Shown one piece after another: positions 6,731 to 62,535 of a stretch of 64,000 nucleotides of DNA (the first letter of the stretch is position 1; each line of letters begins with the position of its first letter). The stretch lies in the NCBI GenBank assembly GCA_976551045.1, contig CDPCPM010000114.1, positions 7,192,001-7,256,000 of the forward strand. Reading direction: 5' to 3'. The position numbers and the translations under genes are program-made. The notes beneath the pieces were generated by a model that had not been told where the DNA came from, did no database searches, and saw only the letters and a program-made list of their open reading frames with translations. Source of the stretch: Glaucostegus cemiculus (taxonomy: Eukaryota).

Positions 6731-7579
6731 GTAGGTGTTTTCGAGAAAGTATATGACATGAAAATGCATTATTTTATTGGTAAATCATTATTAAAAGCAG
6801 ACCTTGTTTCAGGTCTGGGTTTAAGTTGAGCCAGGACCTATGTAATGAATCATTTGTGTACTGAAATTCGAAGTGAAATGAGTTTTGTTAGTCTCAATCC
6901 ATTTACCAATGGCAATTACTCGTCAGTGTGACATTTCCAGTAATTTAGATTAGTTGCTCTTTGTCCAGAAAGCTCACAAGGAGGCTAGTGCAGAATATTG
7001 GGAATGTCACTGCTGTTTGATGCATATGTTTTTCTAATGTAGGAACAGGTTTTTTAAGTATTGCTGTTGTGCAACCTACTCATAATGTTGACACTAAGTG
7101 CAAAATTAGAAGTTTTTCTTTTCCAGTGCTAATATATTTTGCACAAATTTTCAGATGATCAGTGCTCTGAGTCATTTGCTGTTCAACTGTGTTAAAACAT
7201 TAAATTAAGCCCAATATGGTCATTCTCTCATGTCCATTGATTTCCACATTAGTCCATGTCAGTGAGGATTGGAAGAGCTGTTCAGATGATTTTCTCATTC
7301 ATAGGTATGCTAATAATGTCATGGACATTATTAGCATAATAATGTCATGGACGACCCAAACTTAGGTTCAACTACAGCAGCTGCGGAATTTAAATAAACT
7401 ATTCCAAATTCTGCATGTGACTCCAGATCCACGCCCATTGTGGTTGACTCTTCTGAAATGGTCTGGCAAGCCACTCTGTTTACGGGTACCAGGATTGGTT
7501 AATAAATGCTGATCTTCCAGCAATGCCCAGATACTGAAAAAATGAATAAAACAAAATTAGACTCTGACCAGAAGTACAA

Positions 7580-7750
7580 TATTGCAGATGCTGGAAATCT
7601 GAACTATTAACAGAAAGTATCAGGTGACATGTGCAGAAGGGAAAAGTGAGATTGATGTTTCTGATCTTTGACCTCTCCATCAAAAGAGAACTTGTTTTGC
7701 ATGTAACAGGTTTGAAGAAATGCAGAGACAGGGTTGGGGAGGAAAGATCA
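7580..7750 (-). mobile_element. Degenerate Penelope-derived pLTR element
   Basis: tgcagatgctggaaatctga start. Reverse complement shows an eroded hammerhead region (ttgatggagaggtcaaagatcagaaacatc). Confidence 0.55.
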
Positions 7751-8353: not shown

Positions 8354-8651
8354 GATACAAGATAAGATATTTATTAGTCACACGTATGTCAAAACACAGT
8401 GAAATAGGTCTTCTTGCATTACTGAGAATGTGCTCGGGGAAGCCCGCAAATGTCGCCACTCTTCTGGTTCCAACATAGCATGCCCACAGCTCCTAACCTG
8501 TACGTCTTTGGAATGTGGATGGAAACCAGAGCACCCGGAGGAAACCCATGCAGACACAGGGAGAACGTACAAACTCCTTACAGGCAGCAGCGGGAATTGA
8601 ACCCAGGTCGCTGGCACTGTAATAGCATTACACTAATCGCTATGCTACCAT
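8354..8651 (-). mobile_element. tRNA-derived V-SINE, tail type B
   Basis: V-domain (rc gggtttcctccgggtgctctggtttcc), B-box-like ggttcaattcc on the minus strand. Possible 7-bp TSD gcattta at 8347-8353 and 8652-8658. Confidence 0.85.
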
Positions 8652-8953
8652 GCATTTAATGATGACATCACCAACAAGCCTGCCTGTCGTCTATCCTTTG
8701 AGTTATGAATATGCTAATAGATCCGACAGCATGGCACAGTTGTATTCCACCAGCATGCATTCAGTTAAATGCCCTATGCTAGAAGCTGGTCATTGTCCTG
8801 AGTGTCAGTGTCTTTGGGAGTGATGAGCTTGGATCTGTGCATCGGGAGAGAATTCATTTCCTTGATTTTCCTATTCATCTGTTAATCATGCTCATAAGAA
8901 GGAAGTCTGTGCTGAAAACCTTGTTAAAATGTTAATGCTTCCTCCCATTCTAG

Positions 8954-12122: not shown

Positions 12123-12713
12123 AAAAACCCAAAAGGACTGCAGATGTTGTAAATCTAAAATAAAAGCAGAAAATGCTGGAAATATTCAGTAGGTCAGGCC
12201 ACATCTGTGGGAGGAGAAACAGAAACGATAGCGGCACGATAGTGTAGCGGTTAGCGCGATGCTGTTACAGCGCCAGCGATCGGGGTTCGATTCCCGTCGC
12301 TGACTGTAAGGAGTTTGTACGTTCTCCCGTGTCTGCCTGGGTTTCCTCCAGGCGCTCCAGTTTCCTCCCACATCCTGAAACGTACGGGTAGGTTAATTTG
12401 AGGGGGGGGTCTTAAAATGGGCGGCGTGGACTCGGAGGGCCGAAAGGGCCTGTTACCACGCTGTAAATTTAGAAAAAAATAAAATAAAAAAAGAAATAAC
12501 ATTTTGTCAGAAGGAAAGGAGCTGCAGGAAGGACAAAAGGACTTGTTAAATTGCTGGGGCTTTAACCCTATCAGATACATCCCTTCCCCCGCTCTCCCTA
12601 AAGCTGAATGAGCTGCTTTTGTCTCCTTCCCTGCTCTGACAAAAACGTTGACTCTGCTTCTCTTCCCACAGATGTGGCCCGACCTATTTCCAGTATTTTC
12701 CGTTTTTATTTTA
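12123..12713. mobile_element. Palindromic Penelope-derived element (inverted pLTR arms) interrupted by a V-SINE
   Basis: Left arm ctgcagatgttg...aatgctggaaatattcagtaggtcaggccacatctgtggga is the reverse complement of right arm ttcccacagatgtggcccgacctatttccagtattttc. Degenerate 13-bp TSD at 12110-12122 and 12714-12726. Confidence 0.7.
12231..12495 (+). mobile_element. Young full-length V-SINE, tail type A (CR1-like tail)
   Basis: A-box tagtgtagcggttagc, B-box ggttcgattcc, V-domain, tail gggccgaaagggcctgttaccacgctgta and an A-rich end. Many CpGs retained. Confidence 0.9.
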
Positions 12714-12914
12714 GATCACTCATAAGCGTTGGGGAATCATGGTTGGCTGCACTTTGAGGTGCGTTAGAAAGCAGCACTTTTGTGTTCTCGTGGGAGACCC
12801 AATCTTCTTGATGCTTAAACAGTGAAATGCTAGCATTTCTGAGGAAAATCTGGGTTATTGTCTTAGCTTGTTGTTGAGTGACATTTTTTAACATCTTTGT
12901 GTACTTGCTTTCAG

Positions 12915-16039: not shown

Positions 16040-16982
16040 ATAAAATATTTGTTATTTATTTAAATGATTTGGATGCAAATGCACAAGGCTTGATCAGTAA
16101 GTTTGCAGATGACACAAAATTAGGAGGTGTTATTGATAGTGAAGAATTGGCAGATCATTACACGTATTTCCCACCCACTGCATAGAAAAGGTTGCCTTTC
16201 AGGTCTCTTAAACATTTCCCCTCTCACACTAAACCTATGCCCCCTAGTTTTGGACTGCCCTACCCTGGAGAAAAGACTGGTAGCATCCACCTTATCCATG
16301 CCTCTCATAATGTAAACATTTCAATAAGGTTGTCCCTCATTCTCATATGTTTCAAGGAGTTAAGACCTAGCCTGGTCAGCCTCTCCCTATAGCTTATGCC
16401 CACCAGTCCTGGTAACATCCTTGTGAATCTTCTCTGCATTCTTTAATGACATCTTTCCTAGAACAGGGTGACCAAAACTGTACACAGTACTCCAAGTGTG
16501 GCCTCACCAATGACTTGTCCAACTGCAACATAACATCCTAACTACTATACTCAATGCCCTGACTGATGAAGGCCAGTGTAAATTTTTTTAAATTTTACTT
16601 ACAACGTGGTAACAGGCCCTTTCGGCCCAACGAGTCCACGCCGCCCATTTTAAACACCCCAGATTAACCTACCCGTACGTCTTTAGAATGTGGGAGGAAA
16701 CCGGAGCACCCGGAGGAAACCCACGCAGACACGGGAGAACGTACAAACTCCTTACAGACAGCGATGGGAATCGAACCCCGATCGCTGGCGCTGTAACAGT
16801 GTTGTGCTAACTGCTATGCTATCGTGTACTAAATGCCTTTTTCACCACTCTGTCTACCTGTGATGCCACTTTCAGTGAACTATGCATTGAAATTCATTTG
16901 TCATTCCTCGGCCCACTTCCCTAATGCATGGACTCGTTGGGCCGAAGGGCCTGCATCCATGCCGTATTGCTCAATGCTCTAT
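16040..16982. mobile_element. CR1 LINE remnant with an internal inversion
   Basis: + strand RT motif FADDTK (tttgcagatgacacaaaa, ~16102). - strand [12 protein letters not shown]-coding segment within 16161-16921. + strand 3' tail at 16927-16982. Confidence 0.8.
16580..16826 (-). mobile_element. Young V-SINE, tail type A, nested in CR1
   Basis: Near reverse complement of 12231-12470. Splits the CR1 sequence gatgaaggccagtgt|tactaaatgccttttt. Confidence 0.9.
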
Positions 16983-17245
16983 CTTAGTCACCTGTACATC
17001 GAAACACACAGTGAAATGCATCTTTATGTGTGGAGTGTTCTGGGGCAGCCCACAAGTGTCACCGCACTTCCGGCGCCAACGTAGCAAGCCTGCAACTTCC
17101 TACATATTTGGAATGTGGGAGGAAACCGGAACACCCGGAGGAAACCCACGCAGACACAGGGAGAACATACAAACTCCTTACAGACGGTGGCTGGAATTGA
17201 ACCTGGGTCGTTGGTGCTGTAATAACGTTACACTAACCGCTATAC
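16983..17245 (-). mobile_element. V-SINE, tail type B
   Basis: ttagtcacctgtacatcgaaacacacagtgaaatgcatc...ggaggaaacccacgcagacacagggagaac. Confidence 0.85.
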
Positions 17246-17744: not shown

Positions 17745-17882
17745 CTTTATCTTTATTAGTAAGATATCTTCATTAGTCACATGTACATCGAAACACAGCG
17801 AAATGCATCTTTTGCGTAGAATAACCTGGGGCGCAGCCCGCAAGTGTCACCACGCTTCCAACGTCAGCGTTGCATGCCCATA
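17745..17882 (-). mobile_element. 5'-truncated type-B SINE (tail only)
   Basis: attagtcacatgtacatcgaaacacagcgaaatgcatc...gcagcccgcaagtgtcaccacgcttcc. Confidence 0.75.
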
Positions 17883-21380: not shown

Positions 21381-22374
21381 ATGGGATAAATAAAGTAATG
21401 GCAGAGAAATTAAACAAATAATTTGTGTCTGTCTCAACAGACAAAGACAAGGAAAATCTCCTGCAAATTGTGGAGAACTACAAGTCTAGAGTGAATGAAA
21501 AACGCAAATATATTAGCATTTACAAAAAGCAGCATATTTGGGGGTGAAAAAGATTGCCGACATTTCATATCGAAACCCCGGATCAGGACTGAGTGGAAAG
21601 AGGAGTCTGCTACCATTCCCTTTCCCACAAAAAACTGAAGTGGATGTGTCCATTCCTGACAGTCACAATCTGAGGATCGTTCTGTGCTTAATATGGAATG
21701 AAATAGCTTATGAGGAAATAACTATATATCCTATTAATATTATAGGGTGGATGGGTGCTGTATGTATTTTATTTCTGTACCTATATTGTTCTGCTGTAGT
21801 GTGCTTTCAATGACATATCACTTGAATACTGAAATCTGGCAGAATGAATCCATTTTCAATTGACAGGCAATTTCATATGAAGGCAATTGGGTGTCATAAT
21901 GCTGCAGTAAAATTCTAGACACAGAGAGACGGCTGAGAGGATAGTGTAAATAACTGTGGAATTGTAAAATTAGGGTTCTGATGAGCTTTCAATTATTTTT
22001 TATAGGACTTTGAAAAATGCCTATTTAAAAAAAAAATTAAGCCCAATTTTTCTGATGCATATGCCTTCCGAGGTTTCTGTTCCATTTTCTTTAACTTATA
22101 GGTGCTCAGTTTTAGGATTATTTTTAAAATATTTTTTTTTCCTGACACAATTTACCAAAACTGACTTTTTCAAGCTTTCCGAAACTCGGATAATTTACTT
22201 ACAAAAATATAAGTGGCAATAGTTTCTCAAGGAAGAGCTCTTGATGCCTCTGGACATCTCAAACTGCTTTTGATAATCAAATATTTCTGATGTGCAGTCG
22301 CTGATGTAGTGTAGGAAGTGTGCACAGCATTGCCTACAAACAACGTGATTATTGTTTGACCCTTGGACTTTCAG

Positions 22375-22486: not shown

Positions 22487-22579
22487 GTAAGTTTAAGTAC
22501 TGAATAAACTATACTGCATTGTTTTCCTCCTTTAACCTCACATCTTTTTTGCATATGATTTTCCCCATTGCCTCCTTTA

Positions 22580-22810
22580 GATAAGATATCTTTATTAGTC
22601 ACATGTGCATAGAAAGACACAGTGAAGTACATCTTTTGTGTAGGGTGTTCTGGGGGCAGCCCGCAAGTGTCGCCACGCTTCTGGCGCCAACGTAGTATGC
22701 CCACAACTTCCTAACCCCTACGTCTTTGGAATGTGGGGGGGAATCAGAGCACCCGGAGGAAACCCACGCAGACACTGGGGGAACATACAAACTCCTTACA
22801 GAAAGCAGCA
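22580..22810 (-). mobile_element. V-SINE, tail type B, 5'-truncated
   Basis: gataagatatctttattagtcacatg...gagcacccggaggaaacccacgcagacac. Confidence 0.85.
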
Positions 22811-23017: not shown

Positions 23018-23215
23018 TAAAAACTGAAAATGCTGGAAACACTCAGCCAGGTCAGGCAGTATCTATGGAAAGAGAACCAGAATTAACATTTCAGAGCAAA
23101 GACCCTTTGTCAGAACTGGGAAAGAGGAAATCAGTTAGTTTTAAGTTGCAGAGAAGGTGGGGGAGGCAACATGGTGAATCTCCTCCGCCCCCTCACCTTC
23201 TCTACCTCTAAATTA
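23018..23215 (-). mobile_element. Penelope-derived pLTR element with eroded hammerhead core
   Basis: Reverse complement ccagttCTGACAAagggtctttgctctGAAAtgttaattctgg. Short inverted copy of ccaccttctct at ~23190-23205. Confidence 0.65.
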
Positions 23216-27682: not shown

Positions 27683-27874
<192 letters not shown>

Positions 27875-38042: not shown

Positions 38043-38336
38043 GATAAGATAAGCTATCTTTATTAGTCACATGTACATCGAAACACAGAGTGAAATGCAT
38101 CTTTTATGTAGTGTTCTGGGGGCAGCCCACAAGTGTCACCACACTTCCGGCGCCAACCTAGCATGCCCATCACTTCCTAACCTGTACTTCTTTGGAATGC
38201 GGGAGGAAACCAGAGCACCCGGAGGGAACCCATGCAGACACAGGGAGAACGTACAAACTCCTTACGGACAGTGGCCGGAATTGAACTGGGTTGCTGGCGC
38301 TGTAAAGCGTTACGCCAACTACAATGTTACCGTGCC
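38043..38336 (-). mobile_element. Full-length V-SINE, tail type B, inserted in a Deu-SINE remnant (~37920-38620)
   Basis: Collinear with 8354-8651. Flanks carry Deu-like motifs (cttttgaagtacagtcattgttgt; gtttagtgtcctcttcaga). Confidence 0.85.
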
Positions 38337-41145: not shown

Positions 41146-41342
41146 TTTCTGGTCAGGCATCCTTCAGATGCATCAAACAATGCAGGTCAAGCAGCATTGT
41201 TTGATGCATCTGATGAAGGATTCCTCACCAGAAATGTCAACTCTGTTGCTTTCCCCAAGGATGCTGCTTGACTTGTTCAGTGCTTCTAGCATGCACCTTT
41301 TTTTTAACAGATTTCTAGCACCTGTGGCTTTTTGCTTCAGAC
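41146..41342 (+). mobile_element. Penelope-derived pLTR with hammerhead core and 5' fold-back
   Basis: CTGATGAaggattcctcaccaGAAAtgTC at 41210-41238, followed by gatgctgcttgacttgttcagtgcttctagcat...cagatttctagcacctg. Confidence 0.7.
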
Positions 41343-44409: not shown

Positions 44410-44688
44410 TATCTATTTATCTATCTATCTATTTATTTATTTATTTTACAGCGTGGTAACAGGCCCTTTCGGCCCAACGAGTCCATGCCGCCCATTTTAA
44501 CCTACCCGTGCGTCTTTTGAATGTGGGAGGAAACCGGCGCACCCGGAAGAAACCCACGCAGACACAGGAGAATGTACAAACTCCTTACAGTCAGTGACGG
44601 GAGTCGAACCCTGATCGCTGGTGCTGTAACAGCGTCGCGCTAACTGCTACGCTATCGTGTCGCCCTTCTACACTATCGTGTCGCCCTT
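44410..44688 (-). mobile_element. Young V-SINE, tail type A, with (TAGA/TAAA)n tail and duplicated 5' end
   Basis: Near reverse complement of 12231-12470. Microsatellite-like tail at 44410-44447. Confidence 0.9.
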
Positions 44689-46394: not shown

Positions 46395-46530
46395 CTGTGT
46401 TCTGATGAAGTGTCTTTGACCTGAAACATTCCCTGTCACTCCCTCTGAACAGATGCTTACCTGATCTGCTGCATTTTTCCAGCATCTTCTGTTTTTATTT
46501 CAGATTTCCAGCATCTGCAGTTTTTTTTTA
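46395..46530 (+). mobile_element. Penelope-derived pLTR with hammerhead core
   Basis: CTGATGA at 46402-46408, stem gtgtc-ttt-gacct, GAAA at 46423-46426. Tail ttttatttcagatttccagcatctgcag. Confidence 0.75.
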
Positions 46531-55960: not shown

Positions 55961-56981
55961 CTTGTCTATTTCTGTGGGTTTAAAATGGGCCTAGTGAAAA
56001 AATGACCATCCCAGTAGACTATAGTGGGTAGTTCTGGGTTTTAAGCCTTTCTATGAAAAGCTAATCAACAAACATATTTTTGGAGATGAACACAATTTAT
56101 AAATTATGACTTGAAGCAGGACCATTTTAAAATTAAAAAGAGACACTTTTGAGTAGTTATTATCGAAGTTCAAAAATATGACTTATTTCTTGAAAGTTCC
56201 TCACTTCCTATGATAAGAGTTTGTATCATCCATTCCTTCTCCCCAGTCCTCCATAAATGGCTAAGCTGTCCTTATTATGACCATTGCACCTCATGTGGGC
56301 AGGAAGTTAGGGCAGGTACTGTGCTCACACACACTCCATTACTAATCATGACTTTGTATTTGGACCACTTATGTGTTTTAGGTTAAAAATAGACTATAAG
56401 AACAAGATTTTTTTCTGAACTATAAGTTGAGTCGAGGCTCAAACTGATGACACTATTTAAGCAGAGGTGAAAGGATGAGACAAGTCTTGAGTATGTGATT
56501 GGGTGAATGCATATCTGTGCTTTAATAAAAGAAAATTCCTGAACAAAAGGTGACTTTAATTTCTTGTGTCTTATCTCCTTGTCCCCATTTAACATCATTT
56601 TGCCATTTCCTTGCCTTTGCTGTGTTCCATGAATATTTTGCCAGAGTAAAAGCACTGGAAATGGCTAAGCATCAAACCTTTATATATGTGCTTTGTAGCA
56701 CTGCTCAGGAGGTCCAACTGTGTTTGCTTTTTACCTTTTGCCCCTTTGAACTATTCCCACCCACCCCACAGTTTTATGGCAGCATTGCTTCTCTAACCAA
56801 TGTCACTCAAGACCAGATTAAATTTGGCATCTTTCTGCTCTTTATTATGTGGTATTAAATCATTTACCTTCTAAGCCAGACATGTTCAGCACAGCTTTGT
56901 GGGCTGAAGGGTCTTAGGTTTTCTATTTTTCTATCTCCAGTCAGTGTATATACAGTTTTGCTCTGGGGGGAGAAAAGAAGG

Positions 56982-57095
56982 GGCAGATGCTGGGAATCTG
57001 AAATAAAAACAGAAAGGAAACACCCAGCAGAACAGGCAGCATGTGTGGGAAGAGAAACAGTTAATTTTTTCATGTTGAAGACTCTTTGGCAGCTT
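56982..57095 (-). mobile_element. Degenerate Penelope-derived pLTR fragment
   Basis: gcagatgctgggaatctgaaataaaaacagaa...cagcagaacaggcagcatgtgtgggaagagaaacagttaa. Confidence 0.65.
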
Positions 57096-57397
57096 TACTT
57101 TGTAGAGTTTGCAGTGAAGAAGTCAGCTAAAAAATTAGATGACTTATTGATGGCGTTCGAATCTAAGCATAGAAATTAGCTGTAACTATGTGGCACTGTC
57201 TAGGCTGAAGGGATTTGTGACACTCTGGTTTTCACTCGTACAGGCGATTTACCAAATATAATTACAGTTCTTTTCATTGCAGAAAATTACGACATGCCCA
57301 ATACAGAAATTTAAATAAAGCATGTTGTGAAAATTCATTTAATTACACGGGGGTTTGGGAAATGTTGCTTTTGTTAAAACTGTTAAATTACCAGTGC

Positions 57398-57659
57398 CAC
57401 AAAGAGATTCTGCAGATGCTGGAATCTGGAGCAACACGCAAAAAAATGCTGGAGGAACTCGGCAAGTAAGGCAGCACCCATGGAGAGAAATAAACAGTAG
57501 ATGTTTCAGGTCGAGACCCTTCATCAGGACTGGAAAGGAAGACTGGCTCTGCCCACTTCCTTTCCAGTCCTGATGAAGGGTCTTGACCCAGAACGTCGAC
57601 TGTTTATTTTTCTCCTTAGATGCTGCCTTACCTGCTGAGTTCCTCCAGAACCTTTTGTG
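57398..57659. mobile_element. Palindromic Penelope-like element with two inverted minimal hammerhead motifs and a 14-bp TSD
   Basis: TSD taaattaccagtgc at 57384-57397 and 57660-57673. ~105-bp inverted arms around a 14-nt spacer. CTGATGA cores at 57570-57576 (+) and 57521-57527 (-). Confidence 0.85.
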
Positions 57660-57849
57660 TAAATTACCAGTGCAATAGCTTGGGACACACGATCAAACTT
57701 CTCCAAATTCTACTGCATTCAGGTGTGGGTTGTTGCTTCCCTTCAGTTCGCAATGAGAAACATGGCTTAAGGCTGTCACCAGTATGATACTCAACTGTGC
57801 GTTGATTCTTGACATGAGTGGGTTGCTGGTGAGAAGTAATTGAGGAAGT

Positions 57850-58230
57850 TGGCCTTTACCCACTGGAGTTTAGACGATAGAGAGATCATTGAGACTGAGG
57901 GGAAACATCTGGCTGTTTCTTCTGTGTGGAGAGTCAAGGACTGGGGACTATAGTCTCAGGGTAGGAGGCTGACCAATTAGGATTGAGTTAAGAAAAAAAT
58001 TGTCCATGCACAGGGTTATAAATCTTTGGAAATCTGCACCTCGGAGGGTAGTGGATGAGTCATCATTGAGTAAGTCTGAGACAGATGGGTTTTTCAATGC
58101 TAATGGAACCAGAGAATATGGTGATGGGGTGGGCACAGGCCAGTGGATGAGGCATGGTAGCAACAATATAAGTCATTGATTAACTGCACTGACTCAAAGG
58201 GTTTACTCCTGCTTCTGTATCTTATATTCT
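57850..58230 (+). mobile_element. CR1 LINE 3' fragment
   Basis: cactggagtttagacg...agggttataaatctttggaaatctgcacc...tttactcctgcttctgtatcttat. Confidence 0.6.
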
Positions 58231-58316
58231 TGTATTGTGTTTGTATTTAGAATATACAAGTAGCTCATTAGCCAATATTCACCAGCTGTTCACCTGCAAC
58301 TTTTATTTTGTTTCAG

Positions 58317-58349
58317 ATCCTCATGCACACCAAGGAGATGGTCCAGAAG
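58317..58349 (+). CDS. POLA1: POLA1 33-nt micro-exon (ILMHTKEMVQK)
   Basis: ttttattttgtttcag acceptor, gtaatt donor at 58350. Supplies the expected peptide between KGRE and [12 protein letters not shown]. Confidence 0.94.
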
Positions 58350-60094
58350 GTAATTTATCCCCATGCATATTGGTGTATAAAATGGTGCTAAGCTGCAAAG
58401 ACATCAGCAGTCGACTTGAGGAACTGCTCCTTCACAGCAGCAAATCTCATTCATATTCAAGAGTTTAATCAGGAATAAGTTATTTGTGTTAATTAAAGAA
58501 ATGTTTTTCATATGTTGGGTGTGATAAATTGTGTTGTTCCTCATATATGTGAACCTTGTGAATAGAAGCACTTCTCCCTCAGGAGCTGCCTTCTTTGAGT
58601 GCTTTGTGCTAATGCTGTGTTTACCACTTTGCTTTTGTATGCCATTAGCAGCAATTTTGCAATGGGTTTAATTTTTGGTTTATTTTGAGTAACCAAAAAT
58701 TAAGCCCTGCTCAAATGTGCTATCCTGTTCCAACAGCAGGATTTGGGGGTCATATGTTGATGACAATGCATAATATCCATTTTCAGAAGCTTTTGTACTA
58801 TTCATGTCGTGTTTAGTGCAGAGGCAGAGGGTGGCCCAAGAAATAATGGGAGGTATTAAACCATCCTTAGTGCTTGATATTGTCCCCATTAAAATCAATA
58901 TGAAGCAACTTTATCCATACCTGATGTGAACAATACGTATGTCTTTTGTGTTCATGGCATGTATTCTGAACAATTACATTGCTGCAGTCTAATTCTTGGT
59001 AGAGAAGTTGCCAGATGAGCTGCTTTGGGAATGACACTGTTATGACTAATAAGAACAAAGCTCACAAATAACTATGTAGGTTATTAAAGGTCATGGGCTT
59101 TTTATAGTCAAAGTGAACCTACAATTGGATTAAACAGGTTCTTGAAATAAATTTGCTTGATGAAGAATGTAGATGTTGGATTTGTCCCATCTTAAAATGA
59201 AAATATTATAATTAGCTATGGGGGAGTAGAGATCCTTAAGCAGACCCTTCTTGTAAAGAAAAGGTAGTGCAGCAATTCTAACCTACTCACGGGTGATGTA
59301 AATTTATGCAATAAAAGGTCAGAACCATGACAGACCTGTCATATTTGCCATTTCCAGTAATGTGCTCTGCTTCCCTATTTATTAACTCATCTGTCAACAT
59401 CACTCTTTACATCTTCACTAACAGGATTTGCTTAATGCTAATAGACAATCTGAAACTGTACAATTTAATTCTGCTGAGGGTTTCAATTGACAGACTTACC
59501 TGTGATTGAAGTAAAAGTGAGCATTCAGTTGGAAGTGGGGTTCTGAATGTAAATTCTACTCAACCCAAGTCTGGTCTCTGAAGGAAAGACTTGGTTGGTT
59601 ATTGGGCCTGTGAGAATAACTAACAAATCCTTGCTGTGGGCAACTGTTGCTCTGTTTGTGTGGCTCACTAGGAGTCTACAATGTAGGAGTTTAGTATGAC
59701 AGTACAGTATCAAGCACAGCCTGAATGTACAAAATAAATTCTGTGGATTGATGTGTGTCAATTAAACAATTCCCTGCATGCATGTTATATGGGTTAACAT
59801 GTTTCTAAAAGATGTGAAATAATTATTTTTCCATTAAGGCTTTTAGGCTAATTAGATGAATGTACACAGTGTATAAATTTTGTGACTTATACATTAATCT
59901 TAAAAATAGGTATTAATTCATTTGCTCTATTTAAATGCAAAGCCAACAGACCACTTCAGCACAGTATTGAATAGTAGCTAGCTTCACACGTTATTCCCAA
60001 GTGAATATACACGCAAGCATTTGAGAGCTCTTTAATTTGAAAAATTAACTTTTGCAAAATAGTTTGAACACAAGCATCTTTGTTAGGTTGATCA

Positions 60095-61550
60095 CTTACC
60101 CAATAAGGATACTATGGGAAGCAAGAATGGAGATTACTGGGGCTATAATGGAGACTTTTGCATCTTCATTAGTCATGGGTGAGGTACCAGAAGATGGGAG
60201 GAGAGCTAATGTTGTTCCCATATTCAAAAAGGGCAGTAGGGATAAGCCAGGAAACTACAGGCGGTGAGCCTTGCAATAATAGTAGGGAAATTATTGGAAT
60301 AAATTCTAATGGATGGGACTTGTGTTCACTTGGAAGTGCAGGGACTGATGAGCAGTCAATGTGGTTTTGTAGCGGGGTATCCCTTTTCACAAATTGGCTC
60401 GAGTTTTTTGAGGAAGTAGCAAAGATGAAGGCAGTGTAGTAGACGTAGTTTACAAGGACTTTAGCAAGGCTTTTGTCAAAGTCCCGTTCTGTTGGCTGGT
60501 CCTGAAAGTTGGGGCAGATGGCATTCAAGGGATGTTGACAAATTGGGTCCAAAATTGGCTTGGTGATATGGAGCAGAGGATAGTGGTCAAGGGGTGGAAG
60601 TCTGTAACCAGTAGTGCACTGCAGGGATTTGTGCTGGGACATTTGTCATAAAAAATAAATGACCCGGATGAGAATGTAGGTGGAATGATTGGTAAGCTTG
60701 CTGATGACACAAACTTGGTGGAGTAGTAGATAGTGAAGAAGGTTGTGAAAGAATACAGAGAGACATTGTTCAGTTGGAAAAGTTGGGCACAGTGATAGTA
60801 GATACAGTTTAATCCTAATGAGTGTGAGGTAATGCTTTTTGGGATGAAAATACTAACAGGACAGACACTGTAAATGGCAGGGACCTCAGGAGTGTCAATG
60901 TACAGGGGGACCTTTAGATGCAAGCTCACAGCTTGCTAAAAATAGTAACATAAGTGGATAGGGGAGTGAAGTAGGTTTCATAGCCTGAGACATTCAGTTA
61001 AAAGAGTTGGGATGTCCTTTTATGGCTGTACAATATATTGGTCAGGCCACACTTGGAGTATTGTGTACAGTTCTGGTTGCCACACTACAGAACGGATGTG
61101 GTAGCATTAAAGTGCACAAGAGGTTCACCAGGACACTGTATGGATCAGCAGGCTCTTATTAGGGGAATTTGGCTGGGCTGGAACACGAGCTGAGGTGTAA
61201 CCTTATTGAGGTTTATAGATTTATGAAGGGGCAGAGATAGGGTAGATAGAGTCTTTTTCCTAGTGTATGGGAATCTCTAACTAGAGGGCATAGGTGTAAG
61301 GCCCAAGGTGAAAGATTTAAAGGGTACCTGAGGTGCATGTTCTTTACCCACAGGGTGGTGGTTGTATGGAACAAGCTACTAAAGGAAGTGGAAGAGGTGT
61401 TTAAAAGGCCTTTGTATAGGTATTTAGATAGGAAAGTAGAGAGATAGAGACCTAATGTGGGCAAATGGGATTAGTGTTGATAGGCTTCACAGTCAGCATG
61501 GACAAGTTATGACGAAGTGCCTGTTCTTGTGATGTTCACCTCAGTAACTC
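60095..61550 (+). mobile_element. 5'-truncated, deleted CR1 LINE (RT region to 3' tail)
   Basis: Peptide remnants ANVVPIFKKGSRDKPGNYR, DFSKAF.KVP, LADDTNL and [13 protein letters not shown], with multiple stops and frameshifts. Confidence 0.85.

Positions 61551-62403: not shown

Positions 62404-62535
<132 letters not shown>

Follow-up and report, generated by a model that had tools for sequence, protein, structure and literature searches.

Two head-to-head, hammerhead-bearing repeat ends in a POLA1 intron: a probable remnant of a Penelope-like insertion

A 262-bp insert in an intron of POLA1 carries a hammerhead-like motif on each of its strands, which raises the question of whether such a palindrome is a unit that is copied as it stands or the trace of an insertion from something longer. 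We analyzed it within the window, the whole 64-kb stretch of DNA in which it lies. This type of architecture is already known, as inverted truncated copies of Penelope-like elements (PLEs) with opposite-strand hammerheads have been published: minimal hammerheads on opposite strands, 100-700 bp apart, were reported in 2014 and ascribed to truncated PLEs (PMC4209133), and PLE insertions are described as 5'-truncated, often adjacent to an inverted truncated copy, one of their ends carrying a tail of 30-40 bp (PMC8557442; PMC3846280). The origin of these inverted repeats and tails was called 'still undefined' (PMC8557442, Craig et al. 2021), and the present insert is a clean example for this open question. 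We consider it probable that the insert is a dead remnant, consisting of two head-to-head, 5'-truncated, hammerhead-bearing ends of a high-copy repeat that were left by one Penelope-like event; that it goes back to a longer PLE-type RNA, of which only a truncated part was inserted, appears very likely.

Architecture of the insert

The features of the insert and of its hosting intron are as follows.

27842-58316, plus strand: intron of POLA1 (DNA polymerase alpha catalytic subunit) hosting the insert, 30.5 kb
57384-57397, no strand: left copy of the 14-bp direct repeat, likely a target-site duplication (TSD); the orthologous contig from organism B differs from it by one substitution (57393)
57398-57436, minus strand: 39-nt tail, the long family terminus; loose ends of the family at 57402-57410 turn into low-agreement, A-rich flanks
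57437-57541, minus strand: left arm, the 5'-truncated 3' end of a PLE-type terminal repeat, with its sense on the minus strand
57495-57532, minus strand: minimal type I hammerhead, damaged
57542, no strand: single junction base fitting the family continuation of neither arm, presumably untemplated or mutated (judged by eye against the family's loose ends at positions 57541 and 57548)
57543-57659, plus strand: right arm, a 5'-truncated repeat with the short, tail-less terminus; its inner end is 13 nt longer (57543-57555)
57565-57602, plus strand: minimal type I hammerhead
57660-57673, no strand: right copy of the 14-bp flanking repeat, by identity to the left copy

The insert lies at 57398-57659 between two copies of TAAATTACCAGTGC, which are identical at 14/14 positions, as an earlier note on this DNA had proposed, and extendable on neither side; the chance of a match of this 14-mer at a given position is 5.5e-9. 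From its sequence the repeat is likely a TSD. No empty-site joint occurs among the joints listed (15 of 506), and organism B has the left junction. The inverted arms, previously put at about 105 bp, align over 101 nt (57441-57541 and 57556-57656) with 85% complementarity and 14 nt between them, and the extension of about 38 nt that had been noticed on the left arm alone is 39 nt long by alignment. The central 14 nt had been described as a spacer. We observed instead an abrupt junction at 57542 and, at 57543-57555, the sense-strand continuation of the family minus one base (by eye, against loose ends of 118, 210 and 422 contigs); therefore the 'spacer' is 13 nt more of the right-arm terminal repeat plus one base, and not foreign sequence. 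Both outer ends are thus family termini, one long and one short, and both inner ends are truncations. Since the left arm has the 39-nt tail and the right arm the 13-nt inner sequence as pieces of their own, neither arm simply duplicates the other. The tail partly duplicates the sequence that it adjoins, with ATGCTGGA found at 57410-57428 and again at 57441-57459. Another possible reading of the right end is that it is a tail end which has suffered an internal deletion.

The two arms differ at 15 of the 101 aligned positions. Because 12 of these 15 differences are transitions and 6 lie at CpG-type sites, five of these within the hammerhead motif, they look like neutral decay. The innermost 28 nt of both arms are identical (P 0.005 under uniform differences, 0.046 excluding CpG sites). 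Both arms have a T at 57468/57629, where 92-99% of the family depth has a G, and they therefore stem from one template or subfamily.

Taken together, the inverted truncated second copy, the one-sided tail and the long flanking duplication support the PLE pattern suggested in the earlier note. 5' truncation with an adjoining inverted truncated copy is present, both arms stopping inside a longer family repeat, and the one-sided tail of 39 nt falls within the 30-40 bp of endonuclease-positive (EN+) PLE insertions. Likewise, in EN+ PLEs (Penelope/Poseidon, Neptune), as far as the sources cited above describe them, head-to-head truncated repeats with a 30-40-nt tail at one end are enclosed as a whole unit by a TSD. 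The insert differs from them in that no ORF remnant lies between the arms and in its 14-bp duplication, compared to 8-10 bp in the Adineta examples (PMC3846280, Arkhipova et al. 2013).

Hammerhead motifs and predicted RNA folding

Both hammerhead-like strings were found where they had first been noticed, and each of them is damaged. In the minus-strand motif, a palindrome G>A (57502), a stem I closing G>T (57499) and a stem II closing C>T that leaves a wobble (57508) all fall at CpG-type sites. In the plus-strand motif, with a predicted cut after 57597, stems I and II and the palindrome are intact and the GAAA core reads AGAA (57590-57591). These lesions agree with the proposal that core mutations may have silenced this copy, which from its sequence is likely inactive. 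In the family, the base at 57591 is A in 99%, 99% and 96% of the depth of three DNA runs (40 of the 162 rows of the depth table being listed), as GAAA requires, and the loose-end consensuses of the family carry GAAA as well.

A descriptor of the minimal hammerhead matched two sites in the 64-kb window, one in each arm with 2 deviations each, and none with 0-1 deviations; among random 64-kb sequences, 0/60 matched at ≤2 deviations, a slightly flattering control in that stem I of the descriptor was fixed at 5 bp after the element had been seen. The minimal consensus of PLEs consists of a U-rich flank, a short stem I, CUGANGAH, a G-C-closed stem II, GAAAN, a palindrome, UH and an AU-rich flank (PMC4209133, Fig S3). 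The present motif matches it including the extra base before stem II, the G-C closing of stem II and the palindromic positions, and its flanks, U-rich on the 5' side and AU-rich on the 3' side, fit as well. This agreement, with two deviations per arm, supports the reading of the arms as PLE-type terminal repeats that bear a minimal type I hammerhead. Compared to the metazoan PLE minimal hammerheads of that study, the core, the short stem I, the G-C-closed stem II, the loopless stem III and the palindrome are the same; the differences are that 0/56 rows of its Fig S3 are from cartilaginous fish, to which the present host probably belongs by the look of its repeats, and that both motifs here are damaged. 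For stem covariation of the hammerhead across 8 mostly old sequences of the window, 64% of cells were paired in register versus 25-44% when slid, with no excess over shuffles (256/500).

No Rfam hammerhead model matched at E≤10, likely because the motif has no stem III. Only 22 sub-threshold Rfam matches were observed, 21 of them to miRNA-hairpin models; a miRNA gene was rejected, all the matches being far under gathering scores. Some caution follows for annotation, as such hairpins score against miRNA models and can pass for MITEs.

We then considered the RNA that each strand would give. The predicted fold energies are -169.7 and -165.8 kcal/mol, with z-scores of -22.0 and -17.5 and 0/200 shuffles as good on either strand, and forcing the hammerhead stems would cost 56 and 48 kcal/mol, respectively. 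Each strand holds a single sense hammerhead motif plus its antisense. The RNA is predicted to form a hairpin of about 100 bp burying the lone sense ribozyme, and no self-cleavage would be expected in the POLA1 pre-mRNA. The hammerhead dimer model concerns same-strand tandem copies (PMC4209133; PMC6765202). Here, with one sense motif per strand, buried in the hairpin, a dimer in cis of the two arms was rejected. On this model, the description of the insert as two ribozymes applies to its DNA and not to an RNA that would function.

The repeat family and its relation to PLEs

Four read sets, from organism A, organism B (DNA and RNA) and organism G, were aligned to 56700-58300 at 86% likeness. In the three DNA runs, depth over the element rose to 3.1e5, 3.5e6 and 1.2e6, compared to about 3-5, 25-64 and mostly 0-15 over the unique flanks. 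The repeat family is very abundant, its depth exceeding that of the flanks by 4-5 orders of magnitude, although depth is not the same as copy number. The flanks of organism A show 1 difference in 475 letters (three pieces). Those of organism B diverge by 4.8% (50/1038), and one of its contigs (57081-57426) spans the left flank and 29 nt of the element, so that the insertion predates the split at this divergence. In organism G, depth was low on either side of the insert and no joint was found among those listed. The RNA run (organism B) had a flank depth of 0 and family reads on both strands, 96% of them continuing unlike this stretch; no pile-up of read ends was observed at the hammerhead cut site in these reads, which represent the family and not the locus.

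The junctions of the family are informative about the insert's centre, within what was listed (15 of 506 joints, 24 of 1503 loose ends and 24 of 84,381 pieces). Loose ends before 57548 in 118/210/422 contigs, and behind 57541 in 235, lead into a pyrimidine-rich, longer continuation. Among the pieces listed, 0/17 in-element pieces cross the centre at 57543-57555, and in organism G 7/8 have 59-729 unaligned inner-side letters unlike this copy. The arm-to-arm joints listed sit at other breakpoints than 57542, and several head-to-head joints in other organisms have 1-18 letters between their sides, one joint being seen in 71 RNA reads. Some of these joints may merely mark where subfamilies diverge and, since contigs break in repeats, copies with the same centre could be hidden beyond those listed. 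The left arm was exited at 57529-57533, the 5' edge of stem I, in 6 of the 15 joints listed; truncations may cluster here, or subfamilies may simply part at this point.

More decayed relatives also occur in the window, six at E≤0.02 compared to 0 in the reversed-window control:

7575-7700, minus strand: decayed relative
21528-21595, minus strand: decayed relative
23027-23126, minus strand: decayed relative
41210-41324, plus strand: decayed relative
46399-46521, plus strand: decayed relative
56983-57092, minus strand: decayed relative
12135-12730: older head-to-head relative with longer arms, interrupted by a SINE-like repeat of about 250 bp

The longer arms of the head-to-head relative at 12135-12730 agree with centres that vary within the family. 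The relative at 56983-57092 ends only about 300 bp left of the insert, and a short inverted repeat surrounds a hammerhead core at 41146-41234. A search for TSDs around three older window copies returned 7- and 10-nt matches or none. In another assembly, the spurious ORF P0004 runs through two hammerhead units on the same strand at a distance of about 105 codons, a hint at the sequence level that tandem units of the family may also exist.

We searched for a coding partner in several ways. No Pfam match to RT or GIY-YIG was found in 150 of the 154 window frames of at least 70 aa, endonuclease-like peptide motifs were absent from the six frames of the window, and ARAGORN returned 0 genes. Scanning contigs from viruses, prokaryotes and metagenomes for the DNA pattern gave 0 matches. 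As a protein query, the left-arm translation found nothing in longer or near lengths; against 1.84 billion representatives it gave 8 matches, 4 to spurious ORFs of family copies and 4 to unrelated repetitive proteins, with no RT or GIY-YIG domain among the 8. As no RT/GIY-YIG is linked to the repeat, its PLE identity rests on non-coding hallmarks, and judged by these the insert appears to behave like a PLE insertion.

The non-LTR retrozymes of animals (Li, Clavereau, Pollet 2026, bioRxiv 10.64898/2026.07.22.740005) are also ORF-less, PLE-derived and equipped with a type I hammerhead, and the accessible part of that work places them in one chondrichthyan sampled. They are tandem direct repeats with at least 2 same-strand ribozymes, in contrast to the inverted, dispersed and TSD-flanked insert described here; this candidate was rejected, since it requires tandem same-strand hammerheads and the insert has one motif per strand, inverted. 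The chondrichthyan families in the supplements of that preprint may include the present repeat. The accessible text of bioRxiv 10.1101/2025.06.08.657570 makes no mention of Penelope. The family is very abundant, yet in the literature searchable outside subscription journals, Repbase and Dfam we found no description of its hammerhead or of PLE twin priming.

Origin of the head-to-head arrangement

In the probable course of events, an RT/GIY-YIG protein encoded elsewhere would have nicked both strands 14 nt apart. At the top-strand nick, cDNA synthesis would have begun from the long (tail) start site, and at the bottom-strand nick from the short one; both cDNAs would have halted soon after the hammerhead, at 9 and 22 nt from stem I, and would have been joined head to head with one extra base, before gap filling generated the 14-bp duplication. 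Neutral decay has likely followed since. That each arm holds sequence which the other lacks suggests one priming event per nicked strand.

Parts of this course have a biochemical parallel. The PLE protein of Anolis nicks and extends both strands, its RT starts at two sites bounding the tail, and it uses uncleaved RNA, as a predicted dimer (PMC11167929). For PAc, the Poseidon of Anolis carolinensis (Frangieh et al. 2024, PMC11167929), a tail between two termini and read-through of the uncleaved hammerhead are likewise described; the RT start of PAc is AC-rich, as opposed to the TTTGTG with which both termini here end on the hammerhead-sense strand, and the accessible text of that study contains no discussion of inverted insertions or TSDs. 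The shared TTTGTG looks as if the two start sites had a recognition motif in common. We tentatively propose, while thinking it somewhat less than an even bet, that such palindromes preserve the trace of twin priming, in which a PLE dimer let each nicked strand prime its own cDNA, one from the tail start site and one from the short one, and the two cDNAs were joined head to head. The depth suggests a family on the order of 10^5 copies per genome, possibly fed by ORF-less tandem pLTR RNAs. If this were true, arm ends, junctions and TSD lengths would offer a direct genomic test of how PLE inverted insertions are built.

The main rival for the joining step, with some support, is fold-back synthesis. 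Here the PLE origin is the same, the mirror arm arises by self-priming or fold-back of the first cDNA or of an antisense template, and the tail comes by a second nick or by resolution. Self-priming is a published proposal for head-to-head PLE repeats (PMC3846280), and the identity of the inner 28 nt fits copying or conversion near the centre, where a 3-bp mini-hairpin is predicted. However, one such event cannot yield both the 39-nt left tail and the 13-nt right inner piece, and by eye the junction has no microhomology; we therefore regard this route as unlikely, though the most serious of the alternatives.

The earlier note had read the 262-bp palindrome as a fixed, ORF-less, two-ribozyme element, transcribed and re-inserted in trans by a PLE protein. 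It has no ORF, its ends are discrete with a 14-bp duplication, a pLTR is enough for a sequence to be mobilised in trans (PMC3846280), and vertebrates have retrozymes that derive from PLEs and lack an ORF (bioRxiv 10.64898/2026.07.22.740005). Nevertheless, the copies do not share ends and interior among the pieces and joints listed: none crosses the centre, the family runs into the longer repeat, and the other junctions differ. Moreover, the RNA would be locked in its predicted hairpin, and the retrozymes described are tandem direct repeats (bioRxiv 10.64898/2026.07.22.740005). Copying of the palindrome as such thus finds no support and we hold it to be quite improbable; the loose ends, the non-crossing pieces and the other joints argue for a likely short, doubly 5'-truncated PLE insertion. 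In a loose sense, mobilisation in trans is possible, with a template that was perhaps ORF-less.

Marginally less probable still is a longer PLE insertion with inverted ends whose interior was deleted later. There are published cases of copies that have lost internal sequence but keep inverted pLTRs and a TSD (PMC3846280), but the several short joints (1-18 letters) among those listed make short inserts seem a routine product, and no guiding repeat was seen by eye at the junction.

A DNA-transposon MITE whose terminal inverted repeats are long, which the long arms and the CACAAA that begins both insert ends might suggest, was rejected as extremely unlikely given the one-sided tail, the 14-bp duplication, the variable centres, the relatives in single orientation within the window and the hammerhead fit. 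The TSD lengths known for DNA-transposon superfamilies are typically shorter than 14 bp.

For the doubly truncated PLE insertion that we favour, this single locus is likely an old intronic remnant, inert in its host gene. The insert ends 643 bp upstream of an 11-codon POLA1 exon (58317-58349); the exons either side of it align with chain 8d96_C at residues 942-982 and 994-1024, and exactly 11 residues lie between these two segments. A dispersed SINE-like family of about 250-300 bp, with copies 76-89% identical, is also present in the window, and the remaining features are as follows.

4633-62496, plus strand: POLA1 exons, e.g., 27719-27841, 58317-58349 and 62404-62496
8359-8661, 12231-12483, 16582-16835 and 16978-17245: SINE-like copies
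17756-17881, 22577-22806, 38046-38335 and 44431-44663: SINE-like copies

At 60049-61444 (plus strand) we observed broken frames which we take to resemble a CR1-type LINE reverse transcriptase, with no Pfam match for these frames. Finally, the short segment 56862-56915 has very high depth in all four runs and likely stems from the 3' end of a different abundant retroposon.
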